Shown here piece by piece: positions 2,547 through 36,451 of a stretch of 64,000 bases of DNA. The stretch is from Escherichia phage 132. The stretch's first letter is position 1, and the number at the start of each line of letters is the position of its first letter. Position numbers and translations under genes: made by a program. Under the pieces are notes generated by a model that worked only from the letters and a program-made list of their open reading frames with translations, had not been told where the DNA came from and ran no database searches. The DNA lies in the sequence record MZ417521; one strand, given 5' to 3'.

Positions 2547-3038
2547 ATGTTTGTAGATGATGTAACACGAGCGTTTGAATCTGGTGATTTTGCTCGACCT
2601 AACTTATTCCAAGTAGAAATTTCTTATCTTGGACAAAATTTTACGTTTCAATGTAAAGCCACTGCTTTACCAGCTGGTATTGTAGAAAAAATTCCAGTCG
2701 GATTTATGAACCGTAAAATTAACGTAGCAGGCGATCGTACATTCGATGACTGGACTATTACAGTAATGAATGATGAGGCGCATGATGCACGCCAGAAGTT
2801 TGTTGACTGGCAAAGCATTGCTGCTGGGCAAGGAAACGAAATTACTGGTGGAAAACCAGCAGAGTATAAAAAGAGTGCTATTGTACGCCAATATGCTCGT
2901 GACGCTAAAACTGTAACAAAAGAAGTCGAAATTAAAGGCCTGTGGCCTACTAACGTGGGTGAACTTCAGTTAGATTGGGATTCAAACAATGAAATCCAAA
3001 CCTTTGAAGTAACTCTCGCTCTCGATTATTGGGAATAA
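2547..3038 (+). CDS. 19: Tail tube protein gp19
   Basis: 163 aa, same length and sequence character as T4 gp19; position after gp18. Confidence 0.93.
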   Translation: MFVDDVTRAFESGDFARPNLFQVEISYLGQNFTFQCKATALPAGIVEKIPVGFMNRKINVAGDRTFDDWTITVMNDEAHDARQKFVDWQSIAAGQGNEITGGKPAEYKKSAIVRQYARDAKTVTKEVEIKGLWPTNVGELQLDWDSNNEIQTFEVTLALDYWE

Positions 3039-3044
3039 AATGAA

Positions 3045-3060
3045 TGGGGAGAAATCCCCA
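3045..3060 (+). terminator. Stem-loop UGGGGA-GAAA-UCCCCA after gene 19
   Basis: 6-bp inverted repeat with GAAA loop. Confidence 0.4.
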
Positions 3061-3070
3061 TCCTGCTTAA

Positions 3071-4695
<1,625 letters not shown>

Positions 4696-13575: not shown

Positions 13576-15087
13576 ATGACTGACATTAAAGTACATTTTT
13601 ATGATTTTAGTCACGTGAGAATTGATTGTGAAGAAAGTACATTTCATGAACTCCGTGATTTCTTTAGCTTTGAAGCTGACGGGTATCGTTTTAATCCGAA
13701 ATACAAATATGGTCACTGGGATGGACGAATCCGTCTTTTAGATTATAATCGCCTTCTTCCATTCGGCTTAGTCGGGCAAATTAAAAAGTTCTGTGATAAT
13801 TTTGGCTATAAAGCCTGGATTGACCCACAAATTAATGAAAAAGAAGAATTATCAAGAAAAGATTTTGATGAATGGCTTTCTAAATTAGAAATCTATTCAG
13901 GAAATAAAAGAATTGAACCACACTGGTATCAAAAAGATGCAGTGTTCGAAGGATTAGTTAATCGTCGTAGAATTCTTAATCTTCCAACATCCGCAGGTAA
14001 ATCTTTAATTCAAGCTTTGCTTGCACGTTATTATTTGGAAAATTATGAAGGTAAAATTCTTATCATTGTTCCAACAACTGCTCTGACAACTCAGATGGCT
14101 GATGACTTTGTTGACTATCGTTTATTCAGTCATGCAATGATAAAGAAAATCGGTGGTGGAGCATCAAAAGATGATAAATATAAAAATGATGCACCGGTAA
14201 TTGTTGGTACATGGCAAACTGTAGTAAAACAACCAAAAGAATGGTTCTCACAGTTTGGAATGATGATGAATGATGAATGCCATCTTGCCACAGGAAAAAG
14301 TATTTCATCTATCATATCAGGTTTAAATAACTGCATGTTCAAATTCGGTCTATCAGGTTCATTACGTGATGGCAAAGCCAATATAATGCAGTATGTTGGA
14401 ATGTTTGGTGAAATATTTAAGCCAGTAACGACTTCTAAATTAATGGAAGATGGGCAAGTAACTGAGCTAAAAATTAATAGTATTTTTCTTCGCTATCCCG
14501 ATGAGTTCACTACTAAATTAAAGGGAAAAACTTACCAAGAAGAAATAAAAATTATTACTGGGCTCAGTAAAAGAAATAAATGGATCGCTAAATTAGCTAT
14601 TAAGCTTGCGCAAAAAGATGAAAACGCTTTTGTCATGTTTAAGCATGTATCACATGGTAAAGCTATTTTCGATTTAATTAAAAATGAATACGATAAAGTT
14701 TATTACGTATCAGGGGAAGTTGATACTGAAACACGCAATGTAATGAAAACCTTAGCTGAAAACGGTAAAGGAATAATTATAGTAGCTAGTTATGGTGTAT
14801 TTTCTACTGGTATTTCAGTTAAAAATCTGCATCACGTTGTTTTAGCGCACGGTGTTAAATCTAAAATTATTGTATTGCAAACAATAGGTCGCGTATTACG
14901 TAAGCATGGTTCTAAAACAATCGCAACGGTCTGGGACCTCATTGATGATTGCGGTGTTAAGCCAAAATCTGCTAATACGAAAAAGAAATATGTTCATTTG
15001 AACTATCTTTTAAAACACGGCATTGATCGTATTCAGCGCTACGCAGATGAAAAATTTAATTACGTAATGAAAACAGTTAATTTATAA
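13576..15087 (+). CDS. uvsW: UvsW SF2 DNA helicase
   Basis: 503 aa; Walker A-like PTSAGKS and DECH box; T4 UvsW sequence by recall. Confidence 0.95.
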   Translation: MTDIKVHFYDFSHVRIDCEESTFHELRDFFSFEADGYRFNPKYKYGHWDGRIRLLDYNRLLPFGLVGQIKKFCDNFGYKAWIDPQINEKEELSRKDFDEWLSKLEIYSGNKRIEPHWYQKDAVFEGLVNRRRILNLPTSAGKSLIQALLARYYLENYEGKILIIVPTTALTTQMADDFVDYRLFSHAMIKKIGGGASKDDKYKNDAPVIVGTWQTVVKQPKEWFSQFGMMMNDECHLATGKSISSIISGLNNCMFKFGLSGSLRDGKANIMQYVGMFGEIFKPVTTSKLMEDGQVTELKINSIFLRYPDEFTTKLKGKTYQEEIKIITGLSKRNKWIAKLAIKLAQKDENAFVMFKHVSHGKAIFDLIKNEYDKVYYVSGEVDTETRNVMKTLAENGKGIIIVASYGVFSTGISVKNLHHVVLAHGVKSKIIVLQTIGRVLRKHGSKTIATVWDLIDDCGVKPKSANTKKKYVHLNYLLKHGIDRIQRYADEKFNYVMKTVNL

Positions 15088-15099
15088 GGGCTTCGGCCC
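15088..15099 (+). terminator. GGGC-UUCG-GCCC hairpin after uvsW
   Basis: Short GC stem with UUCG loop; may be an RNA stability element since uvsW.1 follows. Confidence 0.35.
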
Positions 15100-15100
15100 T

Positions 15101-15343
15101 TTGGAGAAAAAGATGTTACTAGAATTTAAACAATTTCTTTATGAAGCTTCTATTGATGAATTTATGGGTAAAATTGCCTCTTGCCAAACATTAGAAGGTC
15201 TAGAAGAACTTGAAGCTTATTATAAGAAAAGAGTTAAAGAAACTGAATTAAAAGATACTGATGACATCTCCGTGAGAGATGCTTTGGCAGGAAAAAGAGC
15301 TGAATTAGAAGATTCAGACGATGAAGTAGAAGAAAGCTTTTAA
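15101..15343 (+). CDS. uvsW.1: UvsW.1 small acidic protein
   Basis: 80-aa ORF immediately downstream of uvsW. Confidence 0.75.
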   Translation: MEKKMLLEFKQFLYEASIDEFMGKIASCQTLEGLEELEAYYKKRVKETELKDTDDISVRDALAGKRAELEDSDDEVEESF

Positions 15344-23992: not shown

Positions 23993-26050
23993 CTACATTT
24001 TGAACTTTTTAGACATTCCGTTGATGTTAACCAAAGAAGCCAAGATTTGAGAAACTTCGTTTTCCTCTTCTTTTGATTCTTCTACAAGGAATTGATTAAA
24101 TCCAGCCATTGGACGAACTTCACCAGTTTCCATTAGATGGTCGCCATCATATACCGATTCTTCTAATTGTTCAGAAGGAGGAACGATTGTGCCTTCGATT
24201 AGATACTTGTTATAAGCAGTTTCTTTCATCATGTACGTACTCACTTTATTAATCTTCAGCAAAATTCCACGCGGTAAAATAACTTCAGCTTCTGATGGAA
24301 ATCCTGATAAATGTCCTGGAACGATAACTTTGATTCGCTCAGCTCCTTTAATTACCATACCCACGCTAGTTTCAGCATCTTCATTCGCATAAGCAGAGTG
24401 ACTGCCCATATGCATCAAATCTTCAGCATCAACTGAACCTTCTCCTTCACCAGAAAATACTGTGCCGGAATCATCTAGGGCCATATAGTTTTTACCATAC
24501 TCACCGAAGATATTTGGTTTAAGCGATGTGGATACGAAGTTCTTGAAGTAGAACATTTTATTTTCAATGTTATGACGCAAAGTTTTAAAGGTAACTTCTT
24601 GCCCACGATAAAGAGTAGTTCCTGGAGGAAGAACAGAACCTTTAGCAAATGCAGAATCCAACGTCTCGATGTGTTTAATAGCTCGTTCCATATATTCTTC
24701 ACGGGTAGAATCAGGTTTACCTAAAAGGAACGAGTTCATTTCAACATATGAATCTGCACAATAATCTTCAATTACATCAGATTCAGCTTGAGTTAATCCT
24801 TTTGGAGTTACTTCGGTGCTTGCGTATTCATATGCCTGAGCGGCAGATTCATTAATCAATTTATAAATGCCATTCATGACAAATTGAATAATAGCTGTCT
24901 TTTCATCTGGTGTAGCTTTAGAACCTTTAACTAAATCATTGATAATTTTCTTAATAACATCAAAGCTATTAGAAATATTAATGTCAGCAAGATCGCTTAA
25001 AATTTTATCAGTTTTATAATCAAAGAATTCTTTATTCTTTAAATATTCTTGAGAACCTTGATATGTTATATCGCTCTGCAACTTGATAGATGGATCACGT
25101 AAACGTGCATGGGCTAATGCAATATGATTTCGGAAACTTTCTAGTTCATAATCGTTAGATTTAAAACGAGAAGCACTTCTCATACCACCGATAGCTCCTT
25201 TGCTAAAGTTTGAACCAATCTGAATAACGCCAGAGTTCATCGGACCTTCTGCTTTATATACCGGAACTTTAGATTCAAACTCTTGATATTTCTTAGCAGC
25301 GAAGCTATCACCCTGAAGTGAAGCATCAACAGTAGAATATTGAGCTTGTGCTGCTAATCGACGACTAATTTTAGTTTTCTGAATAACAGCTTGATCCGTG
25401 CGCTTATCATTTTCTAAAGCAATAGAAGCAGCAACAGCGACAGCTTTAGGAACAGCATTACCTGTTTTAACGTCTACATAAACATCACCAACCTTTGATT
25501 CAACTTTTGTGAATAACTCAGTTGAAATAGGAGGTACACCTGGAATGTCTTCTAAATTGGCATTTTTACGGTAAACCATAATATATGCATATTTCTTATC
25601 ATAGTCCCAGATTTCCTTTAAAAGAACATATCGACCTGCTCCTTTAGTACGTACTAAACGGTCGGCAATAACTTGCATTTGACGAGCTGCACCATTTGTT
25701 TTACTCTTTAGTACGCGGAATAAGCATGCGTCAATTTTATATTGTTTCATTGTTTGAAGAGCAGTATCAAAAACGGCATTAATGACACCAATTGGATTTC
25801 CACCCAAGTTTCTAAGTTTAACTAATGATAGTTTCTCATTAACACCTATCATTACGATATGCATCATTTTATCGCCTGGCTTAACGTTTTTATTTGTATC
25901 ACCACCAGAGGTGTATGTACAAAATCTAAATCCAGGAAGCACACTTTCTTCACCGGCTTGAATAGCAAAAATTTGAGGTATTTTATGCTTAGGATTTAAG
26001 TTAACAACCGGCGCCGAAGCGCCGTCAAATAATTCTGTAATAAGTTCCAT
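23993..26050 (-). CDS. Alt-like ADP-ribosyltransferase, tandem paralog
   Basis: 685 aa; N-terminal MELITELFD... and first ~230 aa closely parallel the adjacent alt ORF; C-terminal R (LYRG), STS and EAE triad motifs of R-S-E ADP-ribosyltransferases. Confidence 0.85.
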   Translation of the reverse strand: MELITELFDGASAPVVNLNPKHKIPQIFAIQAGEESVLPGFRFCTYTSGGDTNKNVKPGDKMMHIVMIGVNEKLSLVKLRNLGGNPIGVINAVFDTALQTMKQYKIDACLFRVLKSKTNGAARQMQVIADRLVRTKGAGRYVLLKEIWDYDKKYAYIMVYRKNANLEDIPGVPPISTELFTKVESKVGDVYVDVKTGNAVPKAVAVAASIALENDKRTDQAVIQKTKISRRLAAQAQYSTVDASLQGDSFAAKKYQEFESKVPVYKAEGPMNSGVIQIGSNFSKGAIGGMRSASRFKSNDYELESFRNHIALAHARLRDPSIKLQSDITYQGSQEYLKNKEFFDYKTDKILSDLADINISNSFDVIKKIINDLVKGSKATPDEKTAIIQFVMNGIYKLINESAAQAYEYASTEVTPKGLTQAESDVIEDYCADSYVEMNSFLLGKPDSTREEYMERAIKHIETLDSAFAKGSVLPPGTTLYRGQEVTFKTLRHNIENKMFYFKNFVSTSLKPNIFGEYGKNYMALDDSGTVFSGEGEGSVDAEDLMHMGSHSAYANEDAETSVGMVIKGAERIKVIVPGHLSGFPSEAEVILPRGILLKINKVSTYMMKETAYNKYLIEGTIVPPSEQLEESVYDGDHLMETGEVRPMAGFNQFLVEESKEEENEVSQILASLVNINGMSKKFKM

Positions 26051-26053
26051 GAT

Positions 26054-28150
26054 TTATCCTTGAACGAACTTGTAAGGCATGTTTGTAATATCTATGCAAG
26101 ACGCAATAATTCCGAGAGATGATTCTGCTTTCTGTTTAACATTTGATGAAACAAATGATGCAAAGTCAACTCTGTCTTCTATTTCAATATCACCTGTCAT
26201 TGCAACCAATTCACCAGTTTCCATTAAATGGTCTCCATCATAGATTACCGATTCGGTGAGCTCTTCCGTGGTCATAACTTCAGCTTGAATGAGTTTTGTA
26301 TTATTAGATGTTGTTCCGTCATTATTAGAAGCATCAGTTATTTTATTAACCTTGACCATCAATCCGCGTGGTAGAATAACTTCAGCTTCTGTTGCTATTC
26401 CGAGACTTCCTGGATATACAACATTAACTTTATGAGCTCCATCAATTGCCCATCCTATTTGAACTTTAACGTATTCAGGATTTTCTTTATACGCTCTTAT
26501 TTCGTTTGGATTAATAGTTATTCCTTCTTCATTTTTATCAACTGTTAATTCATTGCGAGCTTCTGGTTCTAAAAGACCAATACCAGCATGTGTGATTCCA
26601 AAACGTCCAAAAATGATAGGAGTTAAAGAAGTAGATACAAAATTTCTGAAGTAGAACACTTTATTTTTAACTAAAGCTTCGTATATAGGAGCAGTCATAC
26701 TCTGAGCACGATAAACTGTAATGCCTTCTGGTATACGATCACCATTTTCAAAAGCAGAATCTAAATTAGTTATAGCAGCTTCAATTTCTTTTTCACTCAT
26801 TACTTCATAACGTTCTGGATCATAACGACCCAAAAGAAGATTATTGATGTCAGTATACCCTGATCCACAGTATTCTCTAATACCTCTCTTTTGTGATGGA
26901 GTATATTTAGAACCATCACGAGCGATTGTAATATCAATCATAGGACCAGCTCCTACGCCAGAGAAACTGTATATCATTCGTTTAAGAAATTTAGTTTTTG
27001 CTGCGTTCCAGGAATTTTTAGTTATTTCTTCCCAGACTTCATCTGGTTGTCCTTTACGATTTTTATTGTGTTTAGCAAGCCAACTATCTTTGTATTCATC
27101 AAAAAGTGAATTAACTGCTGCTGCGTATTTTTCTAAACATTTTATTGAGGTAGTTGGCTCATTTTTAATAGCATGTAGAATTGTATCTTTAATTTTTTCA
27201 GAAACTTCACCAACCCGACTCAGCGGAAAGAATTTATAATCATAATGAAGTTCATCTGCCGTTCCTTCAGCAATAATTTTTGCTGCCTTTGTTTTAGAAG
27301 CTAATGAATTAATTCCAATTTTCATTTCTTCTGCTTCGGGAATTAAAGGTGCAGTAGCTGGTTTATTAAAATTAGCTGCTGTAGATTCATACTTCTGGAA
27401 TAATTCACTTTCAAATCTAGAAGATTCCAATGACTGACTTTGTGCAATTGCTCTACGGGAAATTTTAACTTTAGTAATAACAGCTTGGTCAGAACGCTTA
27501 TCATTTTCTTGTGCAATTGATGCTGCAATTGCCTCATTTTTAGTTACTTGGGCTCCAGTATCTTTATTGATATAAACATCGCCGACCTTCGATTCAACTT
27601 TAGTAAAGAGCTCGGTACTAATTTCCGGAACTCCTGGAATGTCTTCTAGTGATACGTTTTTGCGATGTATAAGAATATATGCATACTTTTTATCATAATC
27701 CCAGAGTTCCTTAAGAAGGACGTATCTGCCACCTGAACGACTACGGATAAGTCTATCAGCAATAACTTGAATTTGTCGAGCTTGACCAGCGGTTTTAGAC
27801 TTAAGAATACGGAGCATACAAGCATCAATTTTATATTGACGCATTGTTTGCATTGCAACAGTAAAAACTGAATTGATATAATTAATTGGGCTTGGACCGA
27901 GACCTTTTAATTTAGCAATTGAACCTTTAGCAGTTAATGTAAAAGGAACAATGTGCATCATTTTATCGCCCATCTTTAAATCACGGTTAGTATCACCTCC
28001 AGATGTATAGGTACATAAACGAAAGCCTGGTTGCTCAATTGCGTCATCAACATGAACTGAAAAAATTTGCGGTATTTTCTTCTTTGGATTTAAGTTTGTA
28101 ATCGGAAGAGTAGTATCTTCGTCAAATAATTCTGTAATAAGTTCCATCAT
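26054..28150 (-). CDS. alt: Alt ADP-ribosyltransferase (capsid-packaged)
   Basis: 698 aa; MMELITELFDEDTTLPITNL... resembles T4 Alt by recall; R (VYRAQ), STS and EAE motifs near C-terminus. Confidence 0.85.
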   Translation of the reverse strand: MMELITELFDEDTTLPITNLNPKKKIPQIFSVHVDDAIEQPGFRLCTYTSGGDTNRDLKMGDKMMHIVPFTLTAKGSIAKLKGLGPSPINYINSVFTVAMQTMRQYKIDACMLRILKSKTAGQARQIQVIADRLIRSRSGGRYVLLKELWDYDKKYAYILIHRKNVSLEDIPGVPEISTELFTKVESKVGDVYINKDTGAQVTKNEAIAASIAQENDKRSDQAVITKVKISRRAIAQSQSLESSRFESELFQKYESTAANFNKPATAPLIPEAEEMKIGINSLASKTKAAKIIAEGTADELHYDYKFFPLSRVGEVSEKIKDTILHAIKNEPTTSIKCLEKYAAAVNSLFDEYKDSWLAKHNKNRKGQPDEVWEEITKNSWNAAKTKFLKRMIYSFSGVGAGPMIDITIARDGSKYTPSQKRGIREYCGSGYTDINNLLLGRYDPERYEVMSEKEIEAAITNLDSAFENGDRIPEGITVYRAQSMTAPIYEALVKNKVFYFRNFVSTSLTPIIFGRFGITHAGIGLLEPEARNELTVDKNEEGITINPNEIRAYKENPEYVKVQIGWAIDGAHKVNVVYPGSLGIATEAEVILPRGLMVKVNKITDASNNDGTTSNNTKLIQAEVMTTEELTESVIYDGDHLMETGELVAMTGDIEIEDRVDFASFVSSNVKQKAESSLGIIASCIDITNMPYKFVQG

Positions 28151-32112: not shown

Positions 32113-32127
32113 AACATTTCCTCAGTA

Positions 32128-32143: not shown

Positions 32144-32151
32144 CATTTATT

Positions 32152-33448: not shown

Positions 33449-33697
33449 TTACTTCAATGTTACCACAAAGTGACGAACTGCTTTTCGCGCAGCAGAAGCC
33501 AAAGGCTTAGCATATTTAAGTTCATCTTTTTCCTGAAGCTCAGCAGCTAATGCAGTTTGAGCAGGATTCAGATGTTTGAAATAACGCAGGATTTCAAGAG
33601 CTTCGGCTTCAACATCAATAGATGCGCCATAGTTTTCGTGACCATTATTCCATGCGTTTCGTTGCAGTTCAAGAGCGTGTTGTAATTGTTTAATCAT
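33449..33697 (-). CDS. rIII: rIII lysis-inhibition accessory protein
   Basis: 82 aa; matches T4 RIII by recall. Confidence 0.9.
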   Translation of the reverse strand: MIKQLQHALELQRNAWNNGHENYGASIDVEAEALEILRYFKHLNPAQTALAAELQEKDELKYAKPLASAARKAVRHFVVTLK

Positions 33698-34236: not shown

Positions 34237-34434
34237 TTATTTACCAATAAATTGGAGCAAATGCTCAACTTTCATACCATTAACGGAAATCAATTTGTCA
34301 ATAGAAAAACCTCGCCATGCACCAAGTTCAACATCAAATACTGGAATCATATCAGTAGATTCTTTCCGAGTAGATTCAGTCAATTTACCAGTTTGCATGG
34401 TTGGCATAAAGTCAGCATCGCGAGTACCTTTCAT
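34237..34434 (-). CDS. Hypothetical protein, C-terminal part of a possibly split 31.1-like gene
   Basis: 65-aa ORF whose frame is open for 17 more codons upstream with no ATG. Confidence 0.5.
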   Translation of the reverse strand: MKGTRDADFMPTMQTGKLTESTRKESTDMIPVFDVELGAWRGFSIDKLISVNGMKVEHLLQFIGK

Positions 34435-34466
34435 AACACGAATAGTACCATCAGACTTTTCAAAAA

Positions 34467-34544
34467 CTACGTTTGAAACACCATGGACAATTTAGTTTTC
34501 AAAATTTCACGAATTGCTACTTTTTGTTCAGTCGTCAGTTTCAT
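34467..34544 (-). CDS. 25-codon ORF (MKLTTEQKVAIREILKTKLSMVFQT), possible N-terminal fragment of the same 31.1-like gene
   Basis: Hand-translated; starts directly after upstream ORF stop; differs from downstream ORF frame by one nucleotide near a GG run. Confidence 0.35.
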   Translation of the reverse strand: MKLTTEQKVAIREILKTKLSMVFQT

Positions 34545-34781
34545 TTATTTACCTATTACAGTTTTAATATGAGTTGTTCCACGTTCTTTAAGAGTGGAAA
34601 GTAATTTTTGGCATTTTTCTAAATCAGATTTCCAACTATGTGGTCTATCAATACAAACCCAGTTTGACTTATAATACTGCTTCCATTTAGAGAAAAAATA
34701 CTTCTTATACTCTACAGCAAATGAAATGTTCTCGTTGGAATAAGAACTAATTGCTGTGAGCTGTACCAAACGAAATTTCAT
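34545..34781 (-). CDS. Hypothetical protein
   Basis: 78-aa ORF downstream of cd. Confidence 0.55.
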   Translation of the reverse strand: MKFRLVQLTAISSYSNENISFAVEYKKYFFSKWKQYYKSNWVCIDRPHSWKSDLEKCQKLLSTLKERGTTHIKTVIGK

Positions 34782-35362
34782 TATTCACCACAGAATTCGT
34801 TGATATTTTCCCAGTTTAACTTATTTAAGTTTTTCTTAGGAACATTAAACACTTCAATACCTGCATTTCGCAGAATATCATCCCAGCCAGGTTTATTTTT
34901 ATCGTATGTTTCACAATAAACCAGCTTTTTAATTCCAGATTGAGCTATTGCTTTTGCACAATCTGGGCAAGGAGAAAGTGTTACATACATAGTAGCACCT
35001 TCAATTGAAGAACCGTTTCGTGCAGCAAACAAAATCGCATTTAGTTCAGCATGAATTTCATTTTTAGACGACCATTCAGAGTGCGCGCTACGATGTTCTT
35101 TCGCCAATACAAAACGATCAGTTGAACCAAACGATACACATTCAGGCTTATGACCTTGAATGATAGTATGTTTAGGCTTATTCAGCAACCAACCTTGCTC
35201 AGCAGCATAATCACAGCAATTCACACCACCTGCAGGCGAACCATTATATCCAGTAGAAATAATACGTCCATTCTTTTCAATTACTGCTCCTACCTTCCAG
35301 GAGCAACATTTTGATTCTTGTGATACTAAATATGCAATTTGAAGTACTGTACTCGCTTTCAT
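34781..35362 (-). CDS. cd: dCMP deaminase
   Basis: 193 aa; zinc-binding HAE and PCxxC motifs (HAELNAI...SPCPDCAKAI). Confidence 0.93.
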   Translation of the reverse strand: MKASTVLQIAYLVSQESKCCSWKVGAVIEKNGRIISTGYNGSPAGGVNCCDYAAEQGWLLNKPKHTIIQGHKPECVSFGSTDRFVLAKEHRSAHSEWSSKNEIHAELNAILFAARNGSSIEGATMYVTLSPCPDCAKAIAQSGIKKLVYCETYDKNKPGWDDILRNAGIEVFNVPKKNLNKLNWENINEFCGE

Positions 35363-35697: not shown

Positions 35698-35930
35698 AGT
35701 ACGCCATACACCCTTTGTGCTTCAACTAATCCATCAAAATCCAATTTGAGATGTGTTATTTGGTCACCATCACCTGGATTCACAATTACTAATACCGAAC
35801 GAGGAGTTTCGGTAATAACACGAACCGACGTTTCAGGAAATCGTTCAGAAACCTTATTTACCAATTCTTGAGCAAATAGTTTAACTTTTTCTTGGAATTC
35901 TTTAACAGTAATTGGTTTTTCGCTTAGCAT
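35694..35930 (-). CDS. Hypothetical protein
   Basis: 78-aa ORF. Confidence 0.55.
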   Translation of the reverse strand: MLSEKPITVKEFQEKVKLFAQELVNKVSERFPETSVRVITETPRSVLVIVNPGDGDQITHLKLDFDGLVEAQRVYGVL

Positions 35931-36451
35931 GTTGATCCTAGCTCCTTACTTTCAACATTTTTAACTAATTTGACAGAAACTAATTCAGCATCTTGGGTAA
36001 TCATTACCGGACCTTCTTCATGCTCTTCAAGATATTCTAGAGCTTTCTTTTTAGCTTCTTCCTTCGTATCAGTTTGAGCATAGATATAGAACATACAACC
36101 AGTAATACCTACTACTTTCCACTTAATTTCTTTATCAGTTTTAATTTCAAATTTACTTACAGAATCATCTTTTTGAACTTCTTCGAAAAAAGAATATTCT
36201 AACATATAAGCAATTGAAAATAACGGGCTAACTTTATAGGATTCACCCATTACATCAACAGCTTTATACCAACAATCATCAATTTCACGTTTAATGCTAA
36301 TAACATTTTTCGCAGGATCTATTTTTACTTTAAATGAATTTTCCCCAATAAACTGGGCAATTCGTTTATTAGCCCCGCAAGTTTCATTAAAAATATCTTT
36401 ATACCCAGTTTTAAAGCGATAAACCTTATCTTCTTCAAACCATTCGCTCAT
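35924..36451 (-). CDS. Hypothetical protein
   Basis: 175-aa ORF. Confidence 0.6.
   Translation of the reverse strand: MSEWFEEDKVYRFKTGYKDIFNETCGANKRIAQFIGENSFKVKIDPAKNVISIKREIDDCWYKAVDVMGESYKVSPLFSIAYMLEYSFFEEVQKDDSVSKFEIKTDKEIKWKVVGITGCMFYIYAQTDTKEEAKKKALEYLEEHEEGPVMITQDAELVSVKLVKNVESKELGSTC

Follow-up and report, generated by a model that had tools for sequence, protein, structure and literature searches.

The window analysed here is a stretch of 64,000 nucleotides from Escherichia phage 132 (sequence record MZ417521), a T4-type (Tequatrovirus) segment that is collinear with T4 from ~97 kb to 161 kb and in which the minus-strand gene order cd - 31.2 - 31.1 - 31 - rIII is the same as in T4, Shfl2 and DalCa (Table 1). 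Between 31.2 and the co-chaperonin gene 31, and on the same strand as these neighbours, lies the orthologue of 31.1, with ~96% nucleotide identity to the T4 gene in the same position, which is 309 nt long (NC_000866 131573-131881), is annotated as 'SH3 beta-barrel fold-containing protein' and is also listed as 'Uncharacterized 11.5 kDa protein in Gp31-cd intergenic region' (NP_049826.1; PHROG 1086). Gene 31 is the essential neighbour, and the one that any polar effect of a break in 31.1 would reach, while on the other side the 31.2 gene is matched in related contigs by the Pfam family PF26895 (Phage_T4_Y13C). Elsewhere in the same region, a 175-aa ORF without a Pfam match is located between the cd.2 and cd.3 orthologues (35924-36451, minus strand); it is present in the window, in Shfl2 (Shfl2p218) and in the contigs of the ERR1601xxxx runs described below, is absent from T4 and from the SRR34430154 and SRR35361999 contigs, and represents a presence/absence polymorphism of a gene of no known function.

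Table 1. Coordinates of 31.1, its remnants and its neighbours in the 64,000-nt window.
Feature	Position	Strand	Remarks
31.1 orthologue	34237..34544	-	WYL_2 / DUF2693, Sm-like SH3 barrel; 308 nt vs 309; -1 frameshift; assigned by alignment and synteny
25-codon remnant ORF	34467..34544	-	MKLTTEQKVAIREILKTKLSMVFQT; gp31.1 residues 1-21 plus out-of-frame VFQT; GenBank QWY90580.1
Deletion site	34481..34482	-	GG vs GGG in all intact relatives; codons 21-22, ATG GGT
Codons for residues 22-37, GVSNVVFEKSDGTIRV	34435..34482	-	Modelled strand beta-1 and start of beta-2; now in the -1 frame
65-codon remnant ORF	34237..34434	-	MKGTRD...FIGK; starts at internal Met38; GenBank QWY90579.1
31.2 orthologue, intact, 78 aa	34545..34781	-	Upstream neighbour of 31.1
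Gene 31, intact, GroES-like co-chaperonin, 111 aa	33845..34180	-	56 nt downstream of 31.1
cd (dCMP deaminase)	34781..35362	-	
rIII	33449..33697	-	

In place of a single ORF of ~93-111 codons that covers the whole domain, the 31.1 locus of the window holds ORFs of 25 and 65 codons in different frames, both of which are found in the ORF list exactly as the original prediction had described them. The shorter ORF begins, as was also claimed, right after the upstream stop, its ATG directly following the TAA of 31.2, and by virtue of this arrangement it would still be translationally coupled to 31.2; it ends at a TAG (34467-34469) and holds most of helix alpha-1 of the structural model discussed below. 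The frame of the longer ORF had been described as open upstream of its ATG without a start codon, which is correct in that no ATG, GTG or TTG is found there, although the open stretch measures 19 codons (*IVHGVSNVVFEKSDGTIRV-M) and not the 17 that had been counted. Likewise, the codons for residues 22-37 have none of these three start codons in their frame, so that they form part of no predicted product. The TAG of the 25-codon ORF is positioned 32 nt upstream of the Met38 ATG, and the sequence that precedes this ATG at 34434 (GATGGTACTATTCGTGTT) contains no Shine-Dalgarno-like motif at a useful distance.

Comparison with intact relatives reduces this arrangement to one base. Where T4, Shfl2, DalCa and JK08 read CCATGGGTG, the 31.1 copy of the window reads CCATGGTG, and in the alignment with T4, DalCa and JK08 this is the sole gap in the gene (CCAT-GGTG in the window versus CCATGGGTG), placed at window position 34481 by a DNA-level comparison with T4 and Shfl2. 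The single-G gap relative to all four phages bears out the proposal that a frameshift splits a 31.1-like gene. Over 938 nt spanning 31.2, 31.1 and 31, the window is identical to DalCa and JK08 but for the one missing G, and because the flanks of the deletion match ~40 GenBank phages at 99.8% identity, with the gap as the only difference, the observed gap is not a product of chance. When one G is restored the two ORFs fuse, as had been anticipated for a protein of ~100 aa, into a protein that measures 102 aa by alignment with T4 and three other phages, is identical to the DalCa and JK08 product and differs from T4 gp31.1 by a single change at residue 37 (V in the window, T in T4). Both vB_EcoM_DalCa (YP_010067627.1) and Shigella phage JK08 (CAD2272940.1) are intact twins with GGG and a 309-nt ORF, whereas the window copy, being one G short of T4 31.1 at codons 21-22, cannot encode the 102-aa protein. 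The GenBank entries of Escherichia phage 132, QWY90579.1 (65 aa) and QWY90580.1 (25 aa), match both ORFs of the window exactly and are presented as two independent hypothetical proteins, whereas they are regarded here as remnants of one gene.

Family and fold of gp31.1 and the effect of the frameshift

A homologue search over 5.8 billion proteins yielded 37 cluster representatives, with 54-98% identity, from T4-like phages of Escherichia, Shigella, Klebsiella, Erwinia, Salmonella and Yersinia, and in 36 of these 37 the gene is a single ORF of 93-111 aa that covers 97-100% of the query. It is because the window breaks the single ORF kept in these 36 representatives that its 31.1 copy is called a pseudogene here; orthologues consisting of two ORFs with independent starts, which according to the original prediction would argue against a frameshift, were not seen among them. 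The 37th representative, a 56-aa homologue from Shigella phage Sfk20, was considered as a further disruption and discarded as an artefact, given that the linear record starts inside 31.1. In that record (MW341595.1, 1-105) the 56-aa 'hypothetical protein' stands at one end and a misc_feature labelled 'similar to hypothetical protein' at the other.

The restored protein consists of one Pfam WYL_2 domain (PF10902; 73.2 bits, cut-off 26.7), matched at residues 13-86 and over profile positions 2-74 of 74. This family, formerly DUF2693, is described as having an 'Sm-like SH3 beta-barrel fold' and was placed in the WYL superfamily on the basis of HHpred (Makarova et al. 2014, PMC4012209). The best PHROG for the restored protein is 1086 (function unknown; E = 1.1e-47), and a search of the literature on T4 31.1 and DUF2693 found no experimental work or functional data. 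When taken separately, the 65-aa remnant scores 38.2 bits against WYL_2 (cut-off 26.7) over profile positions 27-74 of 74 only, and the 25-aa remnant has no Pfam match. The N-terminal third ranks with the best conserved parts of the family alignment and the N-terminal 37 residues are highly conserved, with L3, Q7, R12, E13, L15, K16, L19, G22, V27, F28, E29, K30, D32, G33, T34 and R36 each conserved at 90% or more, and it is residues 22-37, including VFEKxDGTxR, that constitute the most conserved block of the family.

An AlphaFold2 model of intact gp31.1, built on the family alignment (mean pLDDT 81.7), comprises a helix at residues 5-19, strands at 24-29, 35-41, 66-71, 76-81 and 85-88, and a second helix at 93-100, a predicted topology of the Sm/WYL type in which a five-stranded small barrel follows a helix. 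A Foldseek search of this model against the PDB returned Hfq, XC5848 and the WYL domains of BrxR, CapW and PafBC, and since these matches are weak and of the small-barrel kind only (best E ~0.05, TM 0.35-0.47), no functional inference is drawn from the structure. The model thus appears to share its small-barrel fold type with the WYL sensors BrxR, CapW and PafBC and with Sm/Hfq barrels, but unlike these three sensors gp31.1 lacks an N-terminal wHTH DNA-binding domain, as it contains a single Pfam domain and, in the model, one helix plus the barrel.

Projected onto this model, the frame changes at codon 22, in the interval that separates helix alpha-1 from strand beta-1, and translation is stopped after 25 codons, while the start of the 65-aa ORF (Met38) falls inside strand beta-2; neither remnant is predicted to be capable of forming the five-stranded barrel. 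We infer that the 31.1 copy of the window is a null allele without a functional product. Replication slippage would be the simplest cause for the loss of one G from the GGG run at codons 21-22. Translation would then initiate as usual at the ATG of 31.1, which is coupled to the stop of 31.2, and the ribosome would read 21 native and 4 out-of-frame residues before reaching the TAG, giving rise to a 25-aa peptide with the N-terminal helix only. The following 16 codons, which correspond to the most conserved block and include beta-1, would be left untranslated, and the C-terminal 65 codons would be readable only through inefficient re-initiation at Met38, without a Shine-Dalgarno sequence, the product of which would miss beta-1 and part of beta-2 of the five-stranded barrel. 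A quasi-palindrome-templated origin at CCATGG, assessed by eye, was also considered and rejected, since loss of the G leaves the palindrome no more perfect than before.

The deletion in other sequence datasets

Contigs bearing the deletion were identified by look-up of the exact 65-aa product, an approach that detects only disruptions upstream of Met38. The exact product is encoded in the same gene neighbourhood on at least 24 Logan assembly contigs, although the sameness of the 65-aa ORF across these contigs is an ascertainment effect, because the look-up used the exact sequence, and says nothing on function. By exact look-ups, intact 31.1 alleles are present on well over 1,200 contigs (546, 273, 178, 77, 48 etc. 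per sequence) and the truncated 65-aa product on a few dozen. Megablast queries with 40-mers that have the deletion at their centre, designed for each of the two haplotypes, had no match in a collection of 50,697 phages in which ~500 records hold the region; such queries cannot be seeded by the intact form, and they were used because a 91-base query could not tell 'deletion plus one mismatch' from 'intact'. The deleted form was also absent from IMG/VR and JGI metagenome contigs in exact 27-mer scans.

Among the contigs that carry the deletion, a 101-kb Logan contig from SRR14895627 matches the window across 6,198 nt at 100% identity, the missing G included. It probably represents the same phage, assembled from the same reads, and agreement with it would therefore be expected also if a systematic chemistry error affected this isolate. 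The same GG is carried by seven contigs from ERR1601xxxx runs, which are 98.0-98.9% identical to the window, and the same deletion is found, in a GGTA context, on a contig of SRR34430154 that is 96.9% identical to it. A different lesion occurs on the SRR35361999 contig, where over positions 2891-3198 (equivalent to window 34237-34544) the GGG is kept and one T is lost from a T5 run. This loss, 15 nt downstream of the GGG, changes GTAGTTTTTG to GTAGTTTTG and results in a 37-aa ORF together with the same 65-aa ORF.

In a comparison over 938 nt the ERR contigs follow the haplotype of the window as far as and including the deletion and do not depart from it before column 498, a pattern that fits common descent of the deletion in these contigs and the window, with a downstream crossover. 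The SRR34430154 haplotype, on the other hand, shows 33 differences in the 938 nt, among them marker sites close to the deletion on both sides (42 and 51 nt upstream, 3 nt downstream); in this case a separate origin would be more parsimonious than a conversion tract of <45 nt. As judged from the sequences, the haplotypes over 938 nt would point to more than one origin of the deletion.

The original prediction had left three options open, namely a genuine pseudogene, a sequencing error in a homopolymer and two real small genes, and the first of these is the best supported, as the deletion occurs in independent runs and on diverged backgrounds and is the sole frame change among the annotated genes in 64 kb. 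We place at roughly 85% the probability that the gene 31.1 copy in the window is a disrupted member of its family, a pseudogene, and that the mutation is genuine. It has to be considered, as a refinement of this explanation whose share is counted within that same probability, that the loss was selected or reflects on/off switching, with gp31.1 being costly on some hosts, for example through being sensed by a defence system. This seems unlikely, although within one 15-nt stretch of the 309-nt gene at least two -1 events, and probably three, have arisen independently, GGG having become GG on two unrelated haplotypes and T5 having become T4 on a third, and although recurrence at a mere 3-G run exceeds the expectation from simple slippage, since A5 and T5 runs are located nearby. 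Against it, the allele is rare (a few dozen contigs versus more than 1,200 intact ones, and none in ~500 GenBank genomes), the search saw only disruptions upstream of Met38, and the literature shows neither a function for gp31.1 nor a defence that senses it. It appears quite unlikely that 31.1 is a recurrent inactivation target in wild T4-like phages, whether as a WYL_2 protein that is costly on some hosts or with its short runs acting as a reversible on/off switch.

Sequencing error, a working split gene and recoding as alternatives

A sequencing or assembly error would mean that the phage truly has GGG and that one G was dropped in base-calling or in the consensus. The site is a homopolymer, though of just 3 nt, none of the ~500 GenBank T4-like records with the region has the deleted form, and the only assembly that is 100% identical to the window probably comes from the same reads. 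However, at least eight further contigs, obtained in different runs and on backgrounds 1.1-3.1% diverged from the window, share the deletion, so that the indel, found in both the ERR1601xxxx and the SRR34430154 contigs, is not confined to one dataset as an artefact would be. A window-wide check of reading frames, in which all ORFs of at least 60 aa from the syntenic regions of T4 and Shfl2 were compared with the 64-kb window by tblastn, further revealed a changed frame in 31.1 and in no other annotated gene that the window shares with T4 or Shfl2, despite the presence of many longer coding A/T runs; companion frameshifts in further conserved genes, as expected of a homopolymer artefact, were lacking in this comparison. 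The remaining 1-nt indels common to the T4 and Shfl2 comparisons are intergenic T-run lengths adjoining Shine-Dalgarno complements, and the T-run variants at 32146, 32517 and 36513 recur in independent contigs, which argues for accurate homopolymer calling in spite of the unusual lengths of these runs in the window; as the variants at 32146 and 32517 were found again in the independent ERR contigs, they are inherited and not errors. Given this clean 64-kb window and the occurrence of the deletion in independent runs and diverged backgrounds, an assembly-specific error, and with it the homopolymer option of the original prediction, is distinctly unlikely.

Other flags raised by the tblastn comparison were discarded as frameshifts. 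The flag in uvsW corresponds to the known uvsW/uvsW.1 arrangement, which is also that of Shfl2, those in frd.1, frd.3 and pseT.1 are located upstream of the annotated starts, the one in cd.5 reflects a later start, as in Shfl2, and the others concern antisense ORFs without annotation. In the window uvsW and uvsW.1 (13582-15340, plus strand) are separate ORFs, as they are in Shfl2, while the T4 RefSeq has one fused uvsW of 587 aa with a note on sequence discrepancies. One-base T-run contractions relative to T4 and/or Shfl2 are seen at window positions 32117, 32146, 32517, 33414, 38394 and 47846, and each of these six adjoins a CCTC Shine-Dalgarno complement and hence affects the Shine-Dalgarno-to-start spacer of a minus-strand gene.

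It could also be envisaged that the split gene is functional, with the 65-aa part being produced by re-initiation after the TAG and acting either by itself or jointly with the helix peptide of 25 aa. The 65-aa ORF does score above the Pfam cut-off (38.2 versus 26.7 bits), the allele persists in several wild lineages, both frameshift sites are upstream of Met38 and leave an identical 65-aa ORF, and GenBank annotates both pieces as CDS. Yet the shared 65-aa ORF is accounted for by the exact-sequence look-up through which the contigs were ascertained, the best conserved block, residues 22-37, is contained in neither piece, and the 65-aa fragment begins inside beta-2 of the modelled five-stranded barrel, so that the split runs through one domain. 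In addition, ATG 34434 has no preceding Shine-Dalgarno motif and has the TAG 32 nt upstream, and there is no natural member of ~65 aa among the 37 family representatives, the 56-aa protein of Sfk20 being an artefact. A working split gene is therefore highly improbable, and the suggestion of two real small genes fares no better, considering that 36 of the 37 representatives are single ORFs and the 37th is cut short by the start of its record within the gene, that the split lies inside one domain and that the N-terminus is conserved. As for a programmed -1 ribosomal frameshift or other recoding that restores full-length gp31.1, the shift needed is indeed -1 and a 24-nt overlap exists between the target-frame TAA and the zero-frame TAG, but this reading is already effectively refuted, as the overlap (TTG TCC ATG GTG TTT CAA ACG TAG) has no X XXY YYZ slippery heptamer, the local RNA has an MFE of -17.3 kcal/mol versus a shuffle mean of -17.0 (z = -0.10), giving no support for a stable stem-loop or pseudoknot, and no Rfam match, and >99% of orthologues use one frame, so that the two-frame arrangement is not conserved.

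Annotation of the locus and dispensability of 31.1

The pseudogene reading bears directly on annotation. What is now entered for phage 132 as two 'hypothetical proteins', of 25 and 65 aa, should become a single disrupted 31.1 pseudogene, and the longer of these GenBank entries should not be used to seed protein families. A further point regarding the names given to this family is that many GenBank T4-like genomes call the orthologues of 31.1 and 31.2 'tail fiber protein', 'tail fibers protein' or 'capsid scaffolding protein'. The restored protein has a secondary, weak PHROG match to phrog_10657 'tail fiber protein' (E = 8e-11), and this match probably seeds the propagated 'tail fiber' mis-annotation, whereas Pfam indicates WYL_2 and PHROG 1086 is of unknown function.

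A comparable case is provided by T4 alt.-1 and alt.-2, which according to the annotation notes are likewise two short adjacent ORFs from one ancestral coding sequence, although these are the remnant of an old duplication in the T4 reference, whereas the 31.1 split is a recent one-base deletion found in a minority of genomes. With respect to the Alt genes themselves, the window has two full Alt-like ADP-ribosyltransferase paralogues (~25800-28150, minus strand), as does Shfl2, while the second copy exists in T4 only as the alt.-1/alt.-2 remnants, and blastn alignments cross-match between the paralogues.

In conclusion, the break in 31.1 is an ordinary event in a dispensable accessory gene, and the one feature that is at all uncommon, and only mildly so, is that the same deletion appears to have recurred on unrelated backgrounds. 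On the strength of the viability of phage 132 and of the wild contigs that carry the allele, we infer that a T4-type phage can remain viable without 31.1, and with it this WYL_2/DUF2693 protein, in the laboratory as well as in the wild.
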